NCBI GenBank assembly: GCA_051117335.1
Contig: JBNPEB010000009.1
Location: 138,058-202,057, forward strand
Reading direction: 5' to 3'
DNA: 64,000 nt
DNA from: Elainellaceae cyanobacterium
GTDB taxonomy: Bacteria > Cyanobacteriota > Cyanobacteriia > CAZCXK01
A program made the position numbers and the translations under genes. The notes beneath the pieces are model-generated. The model had not been told where the DNA came from and made no database searches. It saw only the letters and a program-made list of their open reading frames with translations. Positions 161 to 9,660 of this stretch are shown here, piece after piece (position 1 is the stretch's first letter; each line of letters starts with the position of its first letter).

Positions 161-274
161 GCTGGAGATTTATCAAAAATGGTAACGTAAAGTCAACGCC
201 TTCACTATGCCCGATAACTTCTGCGATAGTGAGGGGGTGTGGGTTTTATATTTAATTGTGACTATGGAAGAGCA

Positions 275-3200
275 ATGTCGTTGGTTCTGCGGATTCAGGT
301 ATTGGGCGAGCTCTTTATCACCTATGGCGATCGCCCATTAGCAGGCATCACAACAGCGCGATCGCAAGCCTTGCTAGCGTATCTACTTTTACACCGCCAT
401 ACTCCCCAACCGCGCCAGCGAATTGCCTTTGATTTATGGAGAGATTCGGTAGATGCCCAAGCTCGCTCAAACCTCCGCAAAGAGTTAAGCTATCTACGCC
501 GTGATTTGCCAGACGCCAACTCGTTTCTATTGGCCGAGACAAAGACGCTGCAATGGTCACCAACAGCTCCATTCATGCTTGATGTGCTTGACTTTGAGAA
601 CGCGGTCAACGCAGCAGAGCAAACAACTGATCTCAACCAGGCGCGATCGCTCCTTGAACGGGCAGTGCAGCTCTATCAGGGGGATCTATTGCCAAGCTGT
701 GAAGACGAGTGGATTGTCCCTGAACGAGAACGGCTGCGGCAGATGAGAGGCCGAACAGTCGAGCAATTGATTGACGTGCTGAAAACCCAGCAAGACTATC
801 GGACGGCGATCGGCTATGCCCAGCAACTATTGCGAATCGACTCTCTTAATGAATCAACCTACGCATCACTGATGCAGCTACATAGCCTGAGTGGCGATCG
901 CGCGAGTGCGCTTCAGGTTTACTACCAGTGTATGGCCACACTCCGCGACGAGTTAGGCATTGATCCCAGTTCGACAACCCGTGATCTTTACCAACGCATC
1001 TTAAGTGAAGATGAGCCGTCGGAAGAGTCTTCTATCATCTCGGTCTCCCCTAGATCTACTTCCTCTGCTCCCTATCATGATTGGGGAGACGCAATCGATG
1101 TTTCTGTCTTCTACGGGTGTGACACTGAGCGATCGATATTACACCAGTGGATTGTCCATAATGGCTGTCGGCTTGTTTTACTGTTGGGCATCGGTGGAAT
1201 CGGTAAGACGGCCTTGGCAGTTAAACTGGCGCAAGACGTGCAGGCAGAATTTGAGTGTGTGATTTGGCGATCGCTACGAAACGCGCCTCCCCTCGAAACG
1301 CTGCTGGCAGACCTCGTGCTCTTCCTCTCAAATCAGCAAGACACAACCGCAGATGTCGAGCGGTTCATCCATTGGCTGCGGATGCGGCGCTGTTTAGTGG
1401 TTTTAGATAACCTTGAAACCATCTTCCAAGCGGGCGATCGCGCCGGACAGTATCGCCCAAATTACGAAGCCTATGGTGAATTATTCAGAGCACTGGGCGA
1501 GTTACAGCACCAGAGCTGCGTGATCCTCACCAGCCGCGAAAAACCCGCTGAAATTGCAACCTTGGAAGGCGCAGCAGCCGTTCGTACGCTTCAGTTGAGC
1601 GGTTCATTAGACACGGCCATGGCATTGATTGAGTCAAGGAATTTATTTGGTTCTGAAGCAGATAAACAACTACTCGCAAGGCAGTATGGCTGCAACCCTC
1701 TAGCCCTCAAGATTGTAGCGAGCTCGATTCAAGATTTGTTTGATGGCGATATTGATCAGTTTTTGCAGCAAAACGCCATCTTCTTTAGCGGCACTCGGCA
1801 GTTGCTAGAGGAGCAGTTTGAGCGACTCTCAGCCTTAGAGCAAACCATCATGATTTGGTTGGCGATTAATCGAGAATGGACAGCGATCGCCGAGCTAGCA
1901 GACGACATCCTCTCCCCCGTTTCACGCGCCAGTTTATTGGAAGCACTGCAATCTTTAAGTTGGCGAAGTCTGATTGAGAAGCGATCGGGCTACTATACTC
2001 AACAGCCTGTGGTGATGGAATATGTGACCCATTGCCTGGTAGAGCAGATTACAGATGAACTGCTCACCAAACAATTAAATCGCTTCAACCAATATGCCTT
2101 GATTAAAACAACGGCCAACGACTACGTACGCGAGAGCCAAACTCGATTAATTCTGGCAGAAGTCGCTGGCAAGCTTCGTCATGCAATCGGTGATTCCGTT
2201 CGACTGGAACAGCAGCTTTGGGCAATTCTGGCGGTGCTTCATGCGGAAGCGTCTGCACGCTCCGATTATGCCGTCGGTAATCTGCTCAACCTTTGCTGCT
2301 ATTTGGAGATGAATTTAACAGGGTATGATTTTTCCAACTTAAAGATTCGCCATGCCTATCTCCGGAAAGCAAACTTGCATCATGTCAACTTGCAGAATTC
2401 AGATCTAACTCACTCCACGTTTTCTCAGATGCTTGGAGGGGTTTTGGCTGTCGCATTCAGTCCAAGTGGTCAGCTCTTAGCGACTGGAGATAATCGAGGT
2501 CAAGTGCAGGTGTGGCGAGTAGCAGACGGACAGCTTCTGTTAACCCTCGCCGATATTCCAACCAACATCTATTCTGTGGTTTGGAGTCCTGATGGGGAAA
2601 TCCTTGCGAGTGGAAGCGGCGATCATACGATTAAACTTTGGCCTGTTTCAACAGGCCAATGTCTCAAAACCCTACAGGGACATACCAACTGGATTTTGTC
2701 GTTAGCGTGGAGTCCTGATGGAAAGATCTTGGCGAGTGGTAGTCAGGATTCAACCGTAAGATACTGGGATACGTCTACGGGACAGTGCCTGAAACGCTTA
2801 AATCATGCAGGTGCAGCTTGGTGTGTTGCCTGGAGTCCAGATAGCCAAATCCTCGCCAGCGGAGGAACTGGAGGGACGATCAATCTTTGGGATACATCGG
2901 GTAGACCCTATTTAGAGAGTTTCTCAGGTCATCGTGATGTCGTTTGGGCGCTTGATTGGCATCCAGAGGGTCAAATTCTTGCGAGTAGTAGCTCCGATCA
3001 AAGCATCAAACTTTGGGATATTTCGCGTCTGAGCACACCGCGCAACTCTACGAAAGAGCGCTTGAGCAAAGAGTGCTTAAGAACCCTGAATGGTCATAGT
3101 AACTGGGTCTTGTCTGTTGCCTGGACACCCGATGGGCAATTCCTCGTGAGTGGTAGTGCCGATCACACCATCAGACTGTGGGATAAGCAGGATGGTCACT

Positions 3201-4435
3201 GTTTGAAAACCCTGCAAGGGCATAGTAATTGGGTGTGGTCGGTTGCATGCAGCCGTTTATCAAAGAAAGCCGCTTCAAATGACACAGCATCTCAAAAGTC
3301 ACTTGGATTGATCCTTGCCAGTGGGGCTGATGATGAAGCGGTAAAATTTTGGGATCTGCAAACAGGTCAATGCTTAAAAACATTGCAGGGATATCGAGAT
3401 TATGCCTGGTCTATCTCATGGCATCCAAAGGGGCAAATGCTTGCGAGTGGTGGAGCCAGCCAGGTTGTGCGGATTTGGGATACCCACACGGGGCAGTGCA
3501 TTCGAACGCTAGAGGGGCATGATGACTGGGTCTATGCTGTTGCCTACAGTCCAACCTATGAGGAATTCTCAGACGAATTTGATTCCTTACTTGCTAGTGG
3601 TTCCCGCAACTATACGGCGATAGTATGGACGGTGCCAATCTCGGAAACAGGCCAAGAGCACGGGACAGAACCGCCCAAAAGCGAGTGTTGGAAAACGATT
3701 AAAGGATATCAAAATGTGATCTGGTGTGTGGCTTGGAATCCCAATCGACCTCTGCTTGCCGTTGGTAGCATGGACGGTGCGATCCGGTTTTGGGCAACCG
3801 ACACTGGACAGTGTATTCAGACACTGGACGAGCATCGGGGTTGGGTCATGGATATAGACTGGAGCACAGATGGACACATCCTTGCAAGTAGCAGTCAAGA
3901 TAAAACCGTCAAACTCTGGAACAGTCAGACAGGACAATGTCTCAACACCTTAGAGGGGCACGAGCTGGATATCTGGGCTGTTGCTTGGAATCCACACCAG
4001 GCATTAGTTGCAAGTGGTTCATTTGATAAAACGGTGAAACTCTGGAACCCTGATAGCGGTGACTGCCTGCAAACTTTATGCGGACATGCTTCTGGAGTTC
4101 TCTCGATCGCCTGGAGTCCAGACGGCAACACTCTGGCCAGTGGTAGTTCTGACAATACGATTCGACTTTGGAGTGTGGAAACAGGAAGATGTCTCAGAAC
4201 CCTTGAGGGGCACCATAATTGGGTGATGTCTGTGTCTTTCGCTTCAACGGGTGATGTTTTGGCAAGCAGCAGTCAGGATGAAACGATTCGACTCTGGGAC
4301 TGGAAGACAGGTCAGTGTTTGAAGGTGCTGAGAGCCACTCGCCCGTATGAAGGCATGAACATTACCGGCGTCACGGGGTTAACTGAGGCTCAAAAATCGA
4401 CGCTCAGGGCATTAGGGGCGATCGAAGTCAGTTAG
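275..4435 (+). CDS. STAND-type signalling NTPase: N-terminal SARP/BTAD DNA-binding domain, central NB-ARC/AAA ATPase, C-terminal WD40 beta-propeller repeats (AfsR-like)
   Basis: ORF 239-4435; ATG at 275 (MSLVLRIQVLGEL) preceded by GGAAGAG; SARP-like N-terminus; Walker A GIGGIGKT (nt 1189-1212); Walker B CLVVLDNLE; about 14 WD40 repeats (GHxNWVxSVAWSPDGxxLASGSxDxTIKLWD) from nt ~2440 to 4300. Confidence 0.85.
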   Translation: MSLVLRIQVLGELFITYGDRPLAGITTARSQALLAYLLLHRHTPQPRQRIAFDLWRDSVDAQARSNLRKELSYLRRDLPDANSFLLAETKTLQWSPTAPFMLDVLDFENAVNAAEQTTDLNQARSLLERAVQLYQGDLLPSCEDEWIVPERERLRQMRGRTVEQLIDVLKTQQDYRTAIGYAQQLLRIDSLNESTYASLMQLHSLSGDRASALQVYYQCMATLRDELGIDPSSTTRDLYQRILSEDEPSEESSIISVSPRSTSSAPYHDWGDAIDVSVFYGCDTERSILHQWIVHNGCRLVLLLGIGGIGKTALAVKLAQDVQAEFECVIWRSLRNAPPLETLLADLVLFLSNQQDTTADVERFIHWLRMRRCLVVLDNLETIFQAGDRAGQYRPNYEAYGELFRALGELQHQSCVILTSREKPAEIATLEGAAAVRTLQLSGSLDTAMALIESRNLFGSEADKQLLARQYGCNPLALKIVASSIQDLFDGDIDQFLQQNAIFFSGTRQLLEEQFERLSALEQTIMIWLAINREWTAIAELADDILSPVSRASLLEALQSLSWRSLIEKRSGYYTQQPVVMEYVTHCLVEQITDELLTKQLNRFNQYALIKTTANDYVRESQTRLILAEVAGKLRHAIGDSVRLEQQLWAILAVLHAEASARSDYAVGNLLNLCCYLEMNLTGYDFSNLKIRHAYLRKANLHHVNLQNSDLTHSTFSQMLGGVLAVAFSPSGQLLATGDNRGQVQVWRVADGQLLLTLADIPTNIYSVVWSPDGEILASGSGDHTIKLWPVSTGQCLKTLQGHTNWILSLAWSPDGKILASGSQDSTVRYWDTSTGQCLKRLNHAGAAWCVAWSPDSQILASGGTGGTINLWDTSGRPYLESFSGHRDVVWALDWHPEGQILASSSSDQSIKLWDISRLSTPRNSTKERLSKECLRTLNGHSNWVLSVAWTPDGQFLVSGSADHTIRLWDKQDGHCLKTLQGHSNWVWSVACSRLSKKAASNDTASQKSLGLILASGADDEAVKFWDLQTGQCLKTLQGYRDYAWSISWHPKGQMLASGGASQVVRIWDTHTGQCIRTLEGHDDWVYAVAYSPTYEEFSDEFDSLLASGSRNYTAIVWTVPISETGQEHGTEPPKSECWKTIKGYQNVIWCVAWNPNRPLLAVGSMDGAIRFWATDTGQCIQTLDEHRGWVMDIDWSTDGHILASSSQDKTVKLWNSQTGQCLNTLEGHELDIWAVAWNPHQALVASGSFDKTVKLWNPDSGDCLQTLCGHASGVLSIAWSPDGNTLASGSSDNTIRLWSVETGRCLRTLEGHHNWVMSVSFASTGDVLASSSQDETIRLWDWKTGQCLKVLRATRPYEGMNITGVTGLTEAQKSTLRALGAIEVS

Positions 4436-5146
4436 CTTGATGGTATTTCTTAATAAATCCTGCTATTCAAGTAATCTAGCTTTTTCGCCTTTTCCTAACC
4501 TTAGTCAATCAAGAGTTGACGCCTTGGGAGCGCTTTGGGAGCGCTTTGGGATCACGTGGCTAGTTAGGCTAATACAAATTCTAGAAAGTTAGCTGTAGGG
4601 CAAAGCGTCTCCTGCCAATCAAATTGAGTTGGCTAATTATAGCTTCAGTCTCCTTATTCGTTAATCTAATATGACCCTACGGCTCAGGTTTGTGAGGTGA
4701 AGCTCAAATTAAATCTAACCGAGGATTTTATGGACTTTTATTTGATTGATAAATGACTCATTTTAAGCTGTCAAAATTGATCTAAAATCCCAAATAAAAA
4801 GGCTTATTAATTAATTTATAACAGCAAAACTGCCCGCCAAATTAAGGTTTGACGGGGAATTTGGCATGTGAATATTCGAGGAAAACTTGGCTTTTTTCAA
4901 ATAGATAAATCATAGGTTTTCATGTCAGAGAGTTCTCAAAAAAATTTCGAATCTTCTCGATTTCTTCTCGATCTATTTCTAATCTGATAATCAAGAATCA
5001 ATCAAATACAAATTGATGTCTATTCTTGGGATAAATCAGATGAAAGATTTCTGAAAGATAATCCAGACTCAATTTAGAGAATGGATAGTTTCAAATCTTT
5101 TAGCTCCCAATATTAGGTATCAGTTCATCATCACTGGAGGAAAATC

Positions 5147-5314
5147 ATGATTACGAAATTCTCGAACAACTCTGCGACAGGTGATTTAGGCTCCATGCCG
5201 AATCGTAACTTAATGGAGAAATTCTCTCAAGATTGTACAGCCCGTCCAAAATTAGTTGCGCAGTGGGAACGCTTTGATAACCGATTGGTGTGTCGCTGGA
5301 CCTTACCGAACTAA
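5147..5314 (+). CDS. Small ORF (55 aa), hypothetical; below the ORF-track length cut-off
   Basis: ATG at 5147 with GGAGG 8 nt upstream; translation MITKFSNNSATGDLGSMPNRNLMEKFSQDCTARPKLVAQWERFDNRLVCRWTLPN; stop TAA 5312-5314; 98 nt upstream of the next gene. Confidence 0.3.
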   Translation: MITKFSNNSATGDLGSMPNRNLMEKFSQDCTARPKLVAQWERFDNRLVCRWTLPN

Positions 5315-5412
5315 CAGCAAATCGTTAAAGATCAGCAGGCTAATATCAAAATCCCGGAAAATAGTGCACTTTGAATTGCACTTGCATACGCGCTAATTTG
5401 GAGAATTGTACG

Positions 5413-5715
5413 ATGACCACACAATATAAACGATTTCTTTCATTGGGGATTGGCTTTGGAGTGCTAGCATTCGCCTCTCAAACTCAAATACCCACGATGA
5501 TGGCGGATAACTCGGCTCAGCTCGTTTTGAATGGGTTGACGATGAATGGACTGTCAATGAATGGACTGTCAATGAATGGACAGGACGTTAATCGGTCTAC
5601 CAGCCTTCGTCCTGATTGGATTAACCCTGCCACAACTGAAGCAAGGCTAAACCATCAAATGGTTGAGTCTGTCAGTTTGAATGGTGGGCAGCTCACCTTT
5701 CAGTTATCCGACTAG
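5413..5715 (+). CDS. Small secreted protein with signal peptide and tandem NGL(T/S)M pentapeptide repeats
   Basis: ATG at 5413 (MTTQYKRFLSLGIGFGVLAFA); 15-bp tandem DNA repeat aatggactgtcaatg at 5530-5589 encodes NGLTMNGLSMNGLSMNG; ends at TAG 5713-5715, in frame with the downstream ORF. Confidence 0.45.
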   Translation: MTTQYKRFLSLGIGFGVLAFASQTQIPTMMADNSAQLVLNGLTMNGLSMNGLSMNGQDVNRSTSLRPDWINPATTEARLNHQMVESVSLNGGQLTFQLSD

Positions 5716-5724
5716 TACGGTGAG

Positions 5725-6597
5725 GTGTGGGTGATGAACCGCTGTTGTTGGAACCTTATCTTTGCATTCGCTGGCGGAACAGCGCTTGGCTTGACTGCTC
5801 TGCTCGCAGGCTGGTTCAAAGGAACGGAAGTCACCAGCGACCTAACCAGGGGCGATCGCCCTAGTTCACAATCCCTCAAATCATCATCTGTTTTGCAAGG
5901 AGAGGCACTCATCGGAGCAACACTCACTAGCTTTGATGATCAGGGGCGATCGCTCACTCTCAAAATCGACGAGGTACACCCTGACCCCGAAGACATCGAC
6001 CGGGAGATCTATCTTTACACCGTTCTCTATCGGGGTAACGATAAGCAGTGGTACAACCTGTGTCAGCCTGATCGAGACGGTGTTGCACAAGCCATTCCCC
6101 TAACTGGACGGTGGGATGAGACAGGCGCGCACATCGATGATGGTAGCATTACGTTTGCCTGTACGAACGGTGCCCTCGCCAAGTGCGTGCGGTGGGGCTA
6201 CAAGCCCTGGGAAACGGTCAATGGCGAGTCACTTCGCACCTATCACCAGGCATGTACTCGCATGGTGCGAGCTGACTATTGCGGTAACGGCATTGGGCAT
6301 ACCCAGGATGGGACGTCGATTGATGTGTATGACCGACTCGGCATTCAGCTCCCTGTTGATGATGACGGCATGACCTTTGAAGCAGCATGGGATGCGGATG
6401 GTGCAGTATTTCTAAATCGCACGCGCTTTCCGGCGATCGCCCAACTCCGCGAGGAATGTCCTGAAAAATTAGCACAGATGCTTTACTTGCAGGAATCAGA
6501 CTCTCTAGACCCAGACTCTCTAGACATAGACTTTCTATCATCTATTCCCGACGCACTGCTATTCAACGACTCCTTCGTTCAAACAGGCACATTCTAA
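5725..6597 (+). CDS. ADYC-motif domain protein with N-terminal hydrophobic anchor
   Basis: Literal ADYCGNG motif (RMVRADYCGNGIGHTQDG); hydrophobic N-terminus LIFAFAGGTALGLTALLAGWF; GTG 5725 or ATG 5734 start; C-terminal 15-bp tandem repeat (DSLDPDSLD) at ~6497-6540. Confidence 0.55.
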   Translation: MWVMNRCCWNLIFAFAGGTALGLTALLAGWFKGTEVTSDLTRGDRPSSQSLKSSSVLQGEALIGATLTSFDDQGRSLTLKIDEVHPDPEDIDREIYLYTVLYRGNDKQWYNLCQPDRDGVAQAIPLTGRWDETGAHIDDGSITFACTNGALAKCVRWGYKPWETVNGESLRTYHQACTRMVRADYCGNGIGHTQDGTSIDVYDRLGIQLPVDDDGMTFEAAWDADGAVFLNRTRFPAIAQLREECPEKLAQMLYLQESDSLDPDSLDIDFLSSIPDALLFNDSFVQTGTF

Positions 6598-6750
6598 GTT
6601 TTAGATCTCTGCATCCTCCTCAAACATGAGCAACGAATTCGCCTGTTGCTGCCTGGTCTTTCATATCCAAATTTATTTTGGCTGATGCGGCGCTCCTTCG
6701 TTAGCACGCGCGGCCAGCAGTTAGCAGTATTAAAAATTGGAGGTTATCTT

Positions 6751-8238
6751 ATGGCTCGTCAACGATGGGCATCACGGCAAATCTTTGTGTTGGCTGCAAT
6801 CGGTTCAGCGGTCGGCTTGGGGAACGTGTGGCGATTTCCCTACTTAGCTGGCAAATATGGCGGAGGCGCTTTTCTAGTTCCCTATCTATTGGCATTCATT
6901 CTACTGGGCGTGCCGCTGTTGATTCTGGAAATCGCGATTGGTCAAAAAATGCAGCAGGGAGCCATTCACTCATTTCGCAAGCTGCATCCTGCCTTTGGCG
7001 GCATTGGATTAATGGCGATCGCCTCTTGCCTCTTCGTGGGATCTTACTATGCCGTTGTCATCGCCTGGTGTTTGATTTACCTGGTCAAGTCCTTTAGCAT
7101 TCCTTGGGCAGGAGGAGCAGAAGTATACTTCTTTCAAGATATCTTGCAGATTAACGAACATGTACAGCTTTTCGATCGCGTGAATCCTCCTATCCTTTTG
7201 GCTCTTGCCGCCGTCTGGATTGCGATTTACTTCTGCATCTGGAAAGGAACCCAAAGTGTTAGCAAAGTTGTTTTCTATAGTGTCCCGATTCCGGTCGTCA
7301 TTCTTGGCATTTTGCTAGTTCGAGCTGTTACATTGCCCGGTTTCTGGCAAGGGTGGCAGCTTTATTTGACACCGATCTGGAGTGTATTGGTAGCTCCTGA
7401 TGTCTGGACTGCCGCCTGCACTCAGATTTTCTTCACTCTGTCGGTCGGCTTTGGCGCCATGCTCACCTACGGCAGCTACAAAGACGAACAGGAAGATATC
7501 GTCAAAGATGCTTGGATAGCGGCTCTCATTAACAGTGGCACTAGTTTGTTTGCAGGCTTCGTAGTGTTTGCTGTGTTGGGACATATGGCTTGGATCGCCG
7601 ACACGCCTGTGTCAGACCTGGCTGCATCGGGTCCCGGATTGGCGTTTGTGGTCTTTCCCGAAGCGCTTAGCCTCATGCCTCTATCAGGACTGTTTAGCGC
7701 TCTGTTTTTCTTGATGCTGGTATCTCTGGGGATTGATAGCGCTTTTTCGATTGTGGAGCCAATCATCGCAGTTGTGCGCGATCGCCATCCCCAACTCTCA
7801 ATCTCCCATGTAGCAGCCTGGATTTGTCTACTACTGTTTGGCATCGGAGTCCTGTTTACAACCCGGTCTGGTCTTTACTTCCTCGACATTGTGGATCACT
7901 TTGTTACCCATTACGATATAGCGCTTGTGGGTATTGGGCAGGCTCTCCTAGCAGGCTGGGTGGTTGGAGCTGAATCGTTGCGCCGCTATATCAATCAAAT
8001 CAGCGATTGGACGGTTGGACGTTGGTGGAACATCTCAGTTCGCTGGATTGTGCCAGGTACTCTGACGATCTTGCTTGCGACTCAGCTTTCGACCGATTTG
8101 AAAACACCCTATGAAAACTATCCAGCCTGGGCATTGGCGATCGGGTGGGCAACGGTTGTGATTCCTATCCTGCTGTTTGGCTGGATGCTTGCACGCCGAC
8201 AGAAGCGCGAGTTGTCTGCGCCCCTCCACGAGGATTAA
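6751..8238 (+). CDS. Sodium-dependent transporter, neurotransmitter:sodium symporter (NSS/SNF) family
   Basis: ATG 6751 preceded by GGAGG; hallmark motif GNVWRFPYLAGKYGGGAFLVPY near the N-terminus; multi-TM throughout. Confidence 0.85.
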   Translation: MARQRWASRQIFVLAAIGSAVGLGNVWRFPYLAGKYGGGAFLVPYLLAFILLGVPLLILEIAIGQKMQQGAIHSFRKLHPAFGGIGLMAIASCLFVGSYYAVVIAWCLIYLVKSFSIPWAGGAEVYFFQDILQINEHVQLFDRVNPPILLALAAVWIAIYFCIWKGTQSVSKVVFYSVPIPVVILGILLVRAVTLPGFWQGWQLYLTPIWSVLVAPDVWTAACTQIFFTLSVGFGAMLTYGSYKDEQEDIVKDAWIAALINSGTSLFAGFVVFAVLGHMAWIADTPVSDLAASGPGLAFVVFPEALSLMPLSGLFSALFFLMLVSLGIDSAFSIVEPIIAVVRDRHPQLSISHVAAWICLLLFGIGVLFTTRSGLYFLDIVDHFVTHYDIALVGIGQALLAGWVVGAESLRRYINQISDWTVGRWWNISVRWIVPGTLTILLATQLSTDLKTPYENYPAWALAIGWATVVIPILLFGWMLARRQKRELSAPLHED

Positions 8239-8343
8239 ATATCTCTCTACTTCGGCTCTATTTCGGCTCTATCTCAAAACACGTCAGAGTGCATCGTACC
8301 CATAACCATTATTTACCTACATTCACCTAAGGAGAACTCAATC

Positions 8344-9660
8344 ATGGCAACGGTTACTATTCCTAGCGGACAACTTGAAGAGACACCGATCACCCTGGCT
8401 GATCCAGGTGACTCCTTGATTGTTGAAGGGCAAGTGATTGCAAATCCGGCAGTCATTGTCCAAGGAGATTTGAATCATATCTTTGTTCAGCAAGGTGGAT
8501 CACTTGAAAGTGAAAATGCCACCGTTCAGATTGAGGGCACCAATGCCTCGGTCGTCAACAATGGGGTGATTGATGGTGCTGTCATTGATGTTGTGAATGG
8601 AGGCCAAGCCTCAGCCGTCATTTTGAATTCGGGCACCATTATTACTCGGCAACGAGCCATCAACATGGGAGGGGCATCAACGGCTGTCGTGAACAACGGC
8701 AGGATTGTCCTTCGCGATGATCCCAGTGATGGCACTATCTATTCAGATGCAACAGCCAAGAGCTTTTCCATCGAGAATCAGGCGAGCGGATTGATTGATG
8801 TTGGGCAAGGCAACAACGGTGATGCTATTTCTTTAGAACTGGGTGAGATTGTGGACGGTTCGGTCGCCAACCAAGGGGAGATCTATGGGCGGGGAGGAGC
8901 CAACTTACCCCATGCGGCTGCGATCCGCCTCTACAAAGGAGCCAATATCGAGGGAACCTCAACGTTCAACGGCAGCATTTCAAACACAGGTCTGTTGTCG
9001 GCTGAGACCAATGCGGCTGTTTTGATTGACGAAGGAGTTTTTCTCAGCGGTGCGATAACCAACAATGGAGTGATTGAGGGTGGCGTGTACAAAGCCAATG
9101 GAGCCAAGCTTGCCATCGATGGCCGTCAAGCCGAAGACAGCCTGACTGTCGTCAACAATGGCACCATCAATGGCGATGTGCTGTTGACCGGGGGCGATGA
9201 TGTCTACCGCAGCCGTACCGGAAACATTGATGGCATGGTTGTTGGTGGGGGCGGCGATGACCTGCTCATTGGCTGCACCCGTGGTGAAACTCTCAAGGCC
9301 GGTAGCGGCAATGATCGCGTCAAAGCAGGCAGTGGGGATGACGAGATTTTCGGGCAGCGAGGGGATGACGTTATTGATGCCGGTCGTGGAGATGATGTCA
9401 TCGATGCAGGCAAGGGCAACAATGTGGTCTACGGCCGACAAGGCGCGGATGTGTTCCGCTTGTCAAAAGGCAAGGGAGTCACCGTAATCGAGGACTTCAA
9501 GATCAGACAGGGTGACGTGCTTGATGTGAAGCGAGGTGCAATCAACCGCGTTGAGTTTTCTCAGGTCGGGCGAGATACCCTTGTCAGCATTGGTAGGGAT
9601 GACCTCGCGATTTTGAGTGGAGTGAATGCAAATAGCCTTTCGGATAATGTGCTGGTTTAG
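8344..9660 (+). CDS. Secreted calcium-binding protein with RTX (hemolysin-type) nonapeptide repeats
   Basis: ATG 8344 with AAGGAGA RBS; N-terminal beta-helix-like G/N/V-rich repeats; C-terminal GGxGxDxL-type repeats (GGGGDDLLIG, GSGNDRVKAGSGDDEIFGQRGDDVIDAGRGDDVIDAGKGNN). Confidence 0.75.
   Translation: MATVTIPSGQLEETPITLADPGDSLIVEGQVIANPAVIVQGDLNHIFVQQGGSLESENATVQIEGTNASVVNNGVIDGAVIDVVNGGQASAVILNSGTIITRQRAINMGGASTAVVNNGRIVLRDDPSDGTIYSDATAKSFSIENQASGLIDVGQGNNGDAISLELGEIVDGSVANQGEIYGRGGANLPHAAAIRLYKGANIEGTSTFNGSISNTGLLSAETNAAVLIDEGVFLSGAITNNGVIEGGVYKANGAKLAIDGRQAEDSLTVVNNGTINGDVLLTGGDDVYRSRTGNIDGMVVGGGGDDLLIGCTRGETLKAGSGNDRVKAGSGDDEIFGQRGDDVIDAGRGDDVIDAGKGNNVVYGRQGADVFRLSKGKGVTVIEDFKIRQGDVLDVKRGAINRVEFSQVGRDTLVSIGRDDLAILSGVNANSLSDNVLV

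Follow-up and report, generated by a model that had tools for sequence, protein, structure and literature searches.

An in-frame TAG between a small repeat-protein gene and an ADYC-domain gene of an Elainellaceae cyanobacterium is very probably a normal stop codon, with a separate gene on either side

Pentapeptide-repeat proteins (PF00805), such as the cyanobacterial Rfr proteins and MfpA/Qnr, consist of tandem five-residue units with a central hydrophobic residue, the canonical unit being A(D/N)LXX, and form a beta-helix. The proteins of Pfam family PF20032 (ADYC) have W, C, RADYCG, HT and D residues in common; a literature search for "ADYC" and PF20032 found nothing relevant, and a search for a solved structural relative of ADYC was likewise negative. 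Two open reading frames (ORFs) that share a frame and are parted by a single stop codon, the arrangement described here, call to mind nonsense pseudogenes and programmed readthrough. A different likeness is to Rosetta-stone pairs, in which a single ORF of one group of organisms corresponds to adjacent separate genes in another, an arrangement taken to imply that the products interact.

The DNA analysed here (the window) is a stretch of 64,000 nucleotides from an Elainellaceae cyanobacterium. The preliminary description of it pointed out that the ORFs at 5413-5715 (ORF1) and 5725-6597 (ORF2) lie in one frame with only a TAG and three codons between them, and this is borne out by the sequence and the ORF list. 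It offered three explanations: a recent nonsense mutation that split one secreted protein, stop-codon readthrough, or two genuinely separate genes of which the second has its own hydrophobic N-terminus. The last of these is favoured by our results. ORF1 and ORF2 are very probably separate genes of one operon, with the TAG as a normal stop, and their products may be the parts of a split complex. NCBI rightly annotates two proteins here, one a hypothetical protein of 100 aa from an Elainellaceae MAG and the other an ADYC domain-containing protein of 287 aa. The features of the locus are collected in Table 1.

Table 1. Features of the ORF1-ORF2 locus and of two classes of neighbouring gene.
Feature	Locus	Position	Strand	Remarks
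ORF1 Shine-Dalgarno-like GGAG	window	5400..5403	+	9 nt before ORF1 ATG
ORF1	window	5413..5715	+	ATG 5413; 100 aa; small secreted protein; TAG stop
Pentapeptide-repeat block	window	5530..5589	+	four units in ORF1, NGLTM-NGLSM-NGLSM-NGQDV
TAG stop codon of ORF1	window	5713..5715	+	genuine terminator
Intergenic spacer	window	5716..5733	+	18 nt; contains ORF2 Shine-Dalgarno
ORF2 Shine-Dalgarno GAGG	window	5722..5725	+	8 nt ahead of ATG 5734
ORF2	window	5734..6597	+	287 aa; ADYC-domain protein; TAA stop
Second 15-nt tandem repeat	window	6497..6537	+	ORF2 tail; encodes DSLDP-DSLDI-DFLSS
STAND-type giant	window	239..4435	+
STAND-type giant	L002	5448..8810	-
STAND-type giant	L082	1..2005	-
RTX-type protein	window	8344..9660	+
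RTX-type protein	L001	3254..4570
RTX-type protein	L003	2457..3368

As called mechanically, ORF2 opens at GTG 5725, three codons past the TAG and in the frame of ORF1. The biologically supported start is ATG 5734, six codons past the TAG, which matches both the 287-aa NCBI protein and the N-termini of orthologs. The two genes are presumably co-transcribed as one operon, and their promoter would presumably be found at 4436-5412, a region of approximately 1 kb ahead of ORF1 in which no mechanical ORF is longer than 55 aa. A sigma-70 pattern scan of this region revealed nothing beyond the expectation from shuffled sequences, and a promoter and terminator scan of 4400-8400 gave counts not above those of shuffles; a terminator-like hairpin at 5683-5697, at the 3' end of ORF1, is likewise within the shuffled-sequence range, and the two genes are not separated by any significant terminator. 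Paralogs of ORF1 and ORF2 were not found elsewhere in the window.

ORF1 consists, in order, of a Sec-type signal peptide (residues 1-21: KR, a hydrophobic core and AFA↓SQ), four NGxxh pentapeptide units and a C-terminal beta-hairpin motif, VESVSLNGGQLTFQL; the sequence of the hairpin itself is VSLNGGQLTFQL. Pfam and NCBIfam scans assigned ORF1 to no family, and Pentapeptide (PF00805) did not match it even at E <= 1. A homolog search with the single sequence returned only ORF1 itself and one ortholog; the family surfaced through tblastn and profile searches on loci that had been fetched via ADYC. When ORF1 was modelled alone with AF2 (mean pLDDT 48), nothing was predicted beyond the helix of the signal peptide and, at residues 84-98, a hairpin, a result that is consistent with the protein needing a partner. 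With tandem five-residue units and a central hydrophobic residue ORF1 resembles the PF00805 proteins, and some members of its family bear the NCBI name "pentapeptide repeat-containing protein". It differs from them in having four units only (20 residues, at most one coil of a beta-helix), in the unit N-G-x-x-h that most of its family use in place of A(D/N)LXX, and in being a tiny, Sec-secreted protein defined by a C-terminal VEGGQL hairpin, which typical pentapeptide proteins do not have. The AF2 model of ORF1 shows no beta-helix, but at its low confidence it says little about the fold, and four units could make one coil at best.

ORF2 matches PF20032 from position 1 to position 175 of the 176 in the profile, with an E-value of 3.9e-60 and 203.4 bits, the gathering cut-off being 27; an NCBIfam scan gave no family. 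Its residues 1-30 are a hydrophobic signal or anchor, followed by a disordered linker to approximately residue 52, the ADYC domain (residues 56-232) with the motif RADYCGNG at 179-186, and a variable tail with a conserved LLFNDSF motif at its end. Across 120 ADYC homologs C110, C143, C151 and C183 are invariant, as are D181, D200 and E216; C174 and C242 are near-invariant, and H171 and H189 are conserved at 90% or more. The AF2 model (mean pLDDT 84) leaves residues 1-52 disordered and predicts an N-terminal half that is rich in beta structure and a C-terminal half of mixed structure. ORF2 has the residues common to other PF20032 proteins, and nothing in it is unusual; its length and N-terminal signal resemble those of some 120 cyanobacterial ADYC homologs. 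A homolog search found 749 proteins, of which the best 120 are all 214-297 aa long with no fused form among them. Fourteen homolog N-termini were read and all open with a hydrophobic stretch, the closest aligning with M5734 of the window (MNRCCWNL, MNRHRWNL, MKHLHWSL, MKRFTWSL, MARFKWIF). Based upon these lengths and the aligned hydrophobic N-termini, ORF2 is a complete gene and not the tail of a longer one.

Three minor features of ORF2 may be recorded here. At residue W27 (approximately 5812-5814) it reads LLAGWFKG where its close ortholog, L001, reads LFTGCFNG with a lipobox-like Cys. ORF2 was considered as a lipoprotein and rejected, since this Cys is absent and a lipobox-like motif is present in just 38 of the 120 closest ADYC homologs; because of this low count the mode of anchoring seems to vary within the ADYC family. 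An 85-aa ORF inside ORF2 (6116-6373, + strand, frame +2) recurs in nine loci and is a shadow of the strong nucleotide conservation of ADYC rather than a gene. Several GCGATCGC octamers lie in and around ORF2 (5857-5864, 5947-5954, 6443-6450); this is the HIP1 palindrome, which is typical of cyanobacterial genomes, and its presence agrees with the assignment to Elainellaceae.

L001 is a 5.4-kb contig from an independent assembly of a different sample, and its ORF1 ortholog encodes 95 aa. The two loci are 86% identical at the nucleotide level. The preliminary description had asked whether the stop is a sense codon in orthologs. In L001 it is not: the TAG is in the identical position, followed by a spacer which is likewise 18 nt long. 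The sequence GGAGAAT at the ORF1 Shine-Dalgarno site is kept, and 5720-5739 (GTGAGGTGTGGGTGATGAAC), from the ORF2 Shine-Dalgarno through the start codon, is identical at 20 of 20 positions, whereas three of the first four bases after the TAG differ. Both 15-bp tandem repeats reported in the preliminary description were recovered by Tandem Repeats Finder, the first with a perfect 15-nt core at 5542-5581 (2.7 copies, 100% matches) and the second with 2.7 copies and 88% matches. The length variability ascribed to them is seen in the first, in which L001 is short of exactly one 15-nt unit, but not in the second, the copy number of which is the same in both loci. Nei-Gojobori comparison with L001, the single close ortholog on which these values rest, gave dN/dS ratios of 0.26 for ORF1 (Fisher p = 7e-6) and 0.27 for ORF2 (Fisher p = 5e-11). 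Synonymous changes are in significant excess in ORF1 and ORF2 alike, and the ratios indicate that both are under purifying selection; ORF1 is thus a real protein-coding gene, and neither ORF is decaying.

For the wider comparison one genome per species was scanned with the ADYC alignment and 80 loci were fetched; small genes were called with tblastn and with a profile (A4) built from 23 upstream ORFs. Among L002-L035 there are 33 cyanobacterial loci with enough upstream sequence to be assessed, and in 30 of them an ORF1 homolog immediately precedes the ADYC gene on its strand. In the other three (L010, L016, L023) there is no small gene within 4 kb of the ADYC gene, and the partner is thus not obligatory everywhere. 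ORF1 matches A4 with an E-value of 6.5e-30, a value that is partly circular since ORF1 is itself among the 23 sequences. The small proteins at ADYC loci are 68-143 aa long. Their Sec signal peptide is of the classical kind and frequently has ANA↓ at its end; 2 to 11 tandem (N/Q)G-x-x-h units follow in the homologs, and then a C-terminal motif such as LQSLKVEGGQLVAV, whose G-G-Q-L hardly varies; the hairpin consensus is h-x-h-x-(V/L)-E-G-G-Q-L-h, and G92, Q93 and L94 of ORF1 are near-invariant in the family. Relative to the ADYC gene the small gene is in frame 0, 1 or 2 in 6, 7 and 19 loci, respectively, and it ends in TAG in 20, TAA in 9 and TGA in 3. The spacers of the ten junctions measured range from 4 to 132 nt and are unrelated in sequence; those of the nearest relatives are 10-34 nt long and also unrelated.

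The association is also found when one starts from the other gene. Two members of the small family chosen regardless of ADYC, in Calothrix sp. PCC 6303 and Pseudanabaena sp. PCC 6802, are each followed directly by a PF20032 gene. A search with the small-protein profile found 182 proteins, of which the 120 listed are all 73-200 aa long and include no ADYC-fused form; 38 of these 120 reach PF00805, these being longer members and not ORF1. The small gene and the ADYC gene constitute a conserved and undescribed two-gene module of cyanobacteria. Nostoc favosum (L028) has two tandem small genes, at 2780-3007 and 3456-3683, upstream of one ADYC gene. A locus from a MAG named "Rhizobium sp. Q54" (L008, CALRKB020000093.1) is nearly identical to the Chamaesiphon loci, and this contig is probably mis-binned.

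No third conserved neighbour of the pair was universal across the loci. Giant STAND-type proteins lie within approximately 4 kb of the pair in 11 of 39 cyanobacterial loci, a raw count to be read with the abundance of such genes in these genomes, and also in Calothrix PCC 6303. They combine a winged-helix/BTAD or HTH N-terminus with NB-ARC and WD40 repeats, and vary in orientation and in their N-terminal domains. An RTX-type calcium-binding repeat protein (Pfam HemolysinCabind) is encoded downstream of ADYC in the window and in L001, L003, L010, L017 and L022; in the window (6646-8238) and in L001 a gene for an SNF-family transporter lies between the ADYC and RTX genes.

How, then, is the in-frame TAG to be read? 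Of adjacent gene pairs one in three would have a common frame by chance alone, and the relation is thus not improbable in itself; here it is such a coincidence. It is, together with the single stop, what would be expected had a recent nonsense mutation, or a mistake in sequencing or assembly, split one secreted protein and left a pseudogene, and chains with repeats N-terminal to ADYC are indeed known from Myxococcota (see below). We nevertheless regard this as extremely improbable. An independent assembly of another sample has this TAG too, and a stop and a spacer, in various frames, are found in 30 or more cyanobacterial loci. The fused form is absent from both the best 120 ADYC homologs and the 120 small-family proteins listed, the downstream part has a conserved Shine-Dalgarno sequence, ATG and hydrophobic N-terminus, and dN/dS is approximately 0.26 for both parts. 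In the comparison with orthologs that the preliminary description had called for, the two genes are independent, a spacer parts them and each has a ribosome-binding site, which is the outcome that the description itself had named as refuting a split.

Programmed readthrough or recoding of the TAG, giving a functional ORF1-ORF2 fusion beside the separate products, is hardly more credible, although readthrough at a low level would be compatible with the sequence. It would be in keeping with the recurrence of the in-frame single-TAG arrangement in L001, L003 and L006, and with TAG being the commonest stop of the small genes (20 of 32), although these numerous TAG cases come from closely related strains. 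The ADYC gene is in another frame in the equally close L002, L004, L005, L007 and L084, and among relatives generally the frame, the spacer length and the spacer sequence all vary. A fusion would, moreover, bury the signal or anchor of ORF2 in the middle of the chain, and the hairpin ahead of the stop is no stronger than those of shuffled sequences. TAG also terminates 8 of the 31 longest ORFs of the window, including a 1398-aa gene just upstream of the pair, and being ordinary there it gives no reason to suspect codon reassignment.

The preliminary description had envisaged a signal peptide, repeats and the ADYC domain in one protein. At the window locus this does not hold, but in Myxococcota it does. 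ADYC ORFs of Polyangia/Myxococcales are 290-420 aa long and have N-terminal QG/NG pentapeptide repeats (loci L037, L042-L045, L051, L053, L055, L066, L071, L076 and L081), the array (QGRSL x5, NGISL x20, NGVRV x4 and others) being preceded by a lipoprotein-type signal and followed by the ADYC domain. Matches to the small-protein profile fall within the ADYC ORFs of L081 (4e-25), L071 (1e-7), L037 (2e-7), L053 (7e-7), L042 (1e-4) and L076 (2e-4), and in L071, L037 and L042 the match extends to the hairpin positions. When the mature small and mature ADYC proteins of cyanobacterial pairs were concatenated, they aligned colinearly with the natural long forms (alignment A6), VSLNGGQLTF of the window falling opposite VRLQGTTLV, LHLEGTVLV and LRLEGSLLS. 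A hairpin-only HMM run against the 7,855 ORFs of the loci matched 13 myxobacterial ADYC ORFs; these matches are individually non-significant (E 0.03-9) and it is only their position that is consistent, all 13 lying directly before the ADYC domain (e.g. VKALRLEGGHLVAS, VSSLKLEGGRLVAM, LQSLHVEGAELVG). The order in the Myxococcota chain is a signal or lipoprotein signal, pentapeptide repeats, an EGG-x-L hairpin and the ADYC domain.

The single-chain form suggests that the two cyanobacterial products may form a complex in the envelope, the cyanobacterial pair being a split version of the Myxococcota protein. ORF1 and ORF2 each come with a Shine-Dalgarno sequence, a start codon and an export signal, and the small protein and the ADYC protein would be exported separately via Sec. 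After export the small protein would dock, by its C-terminal hairpin, on the ADYC domain at the N-terminal part that is rich in beta structure, and the two would be the subunits of a complex located in the periplasm or the cell envelope. That the pair is an extracytoplasmic protein reassembled in this way by beta-hairpin docking, with the hypervariable number of repeats tuning a spacer or surface part, is a tentative proposal to which we would give somewhat less than an even chance. An unlikely alternative is that ADYC is an enzyme which processes or modifies the small repeat protein in the periplasm, in the manner of a tailoring enzyme and its precursor peptide. A small, length-variable and otherwise unstructured partner with a recognition-like conserved C-terminal motif would suit such a role, as would the tight linkage of the genes, and the invariant Cys, Asp and Glu and near-invariant His residues of ADYC could form a catalytic or metal site. 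However, since the protein is secreted, its conserved Cys residues may do no more than form disulfides, and the covalent fusion of the two parts in many Myxococcota fits a structural association better.

If the docking proposal is true, the pair would be a widespread and undescribed two-component envelope module, split in cyanobacteria and a single chain in Myxococcota, with a fold that has no solved relative. What is new here is the recognition of a conserved partner, or fused module, of ADYC proteins. This is a modest lead. ADYC is nearly always paired with or fused to a pentapeptide-repeat and hairpin module, which offers a functional lead for PF20032, and the small protein is a defined co-expression partner for work on the structure or activity of ADYC. 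The pair is also a clean natural example of one architecture realised either in a single chain or in two chains that are exported separately.

As compared with nonsense pseudogenes and cases of programmed readthrough, the stop here is conserved while the frame varies among relatives, purifying selection acts on both halves, and a Shine-Dalgarno sequence and a start codon belong to the downstream ORF itself. The arrangement is closer to that of Rosetta-stone pairs: what is one ORF in Myxococcota is found in cyanobacteria as adjacent separate genes, with the N-to-C order kept. By these alignments and gene orders ORF1 and ORF2 constitute such a pair, for which fission and fusion are both possible directions. 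It differs from a simple split in that ORF2 has an export signal of its own, which is unusual for the downstream part.
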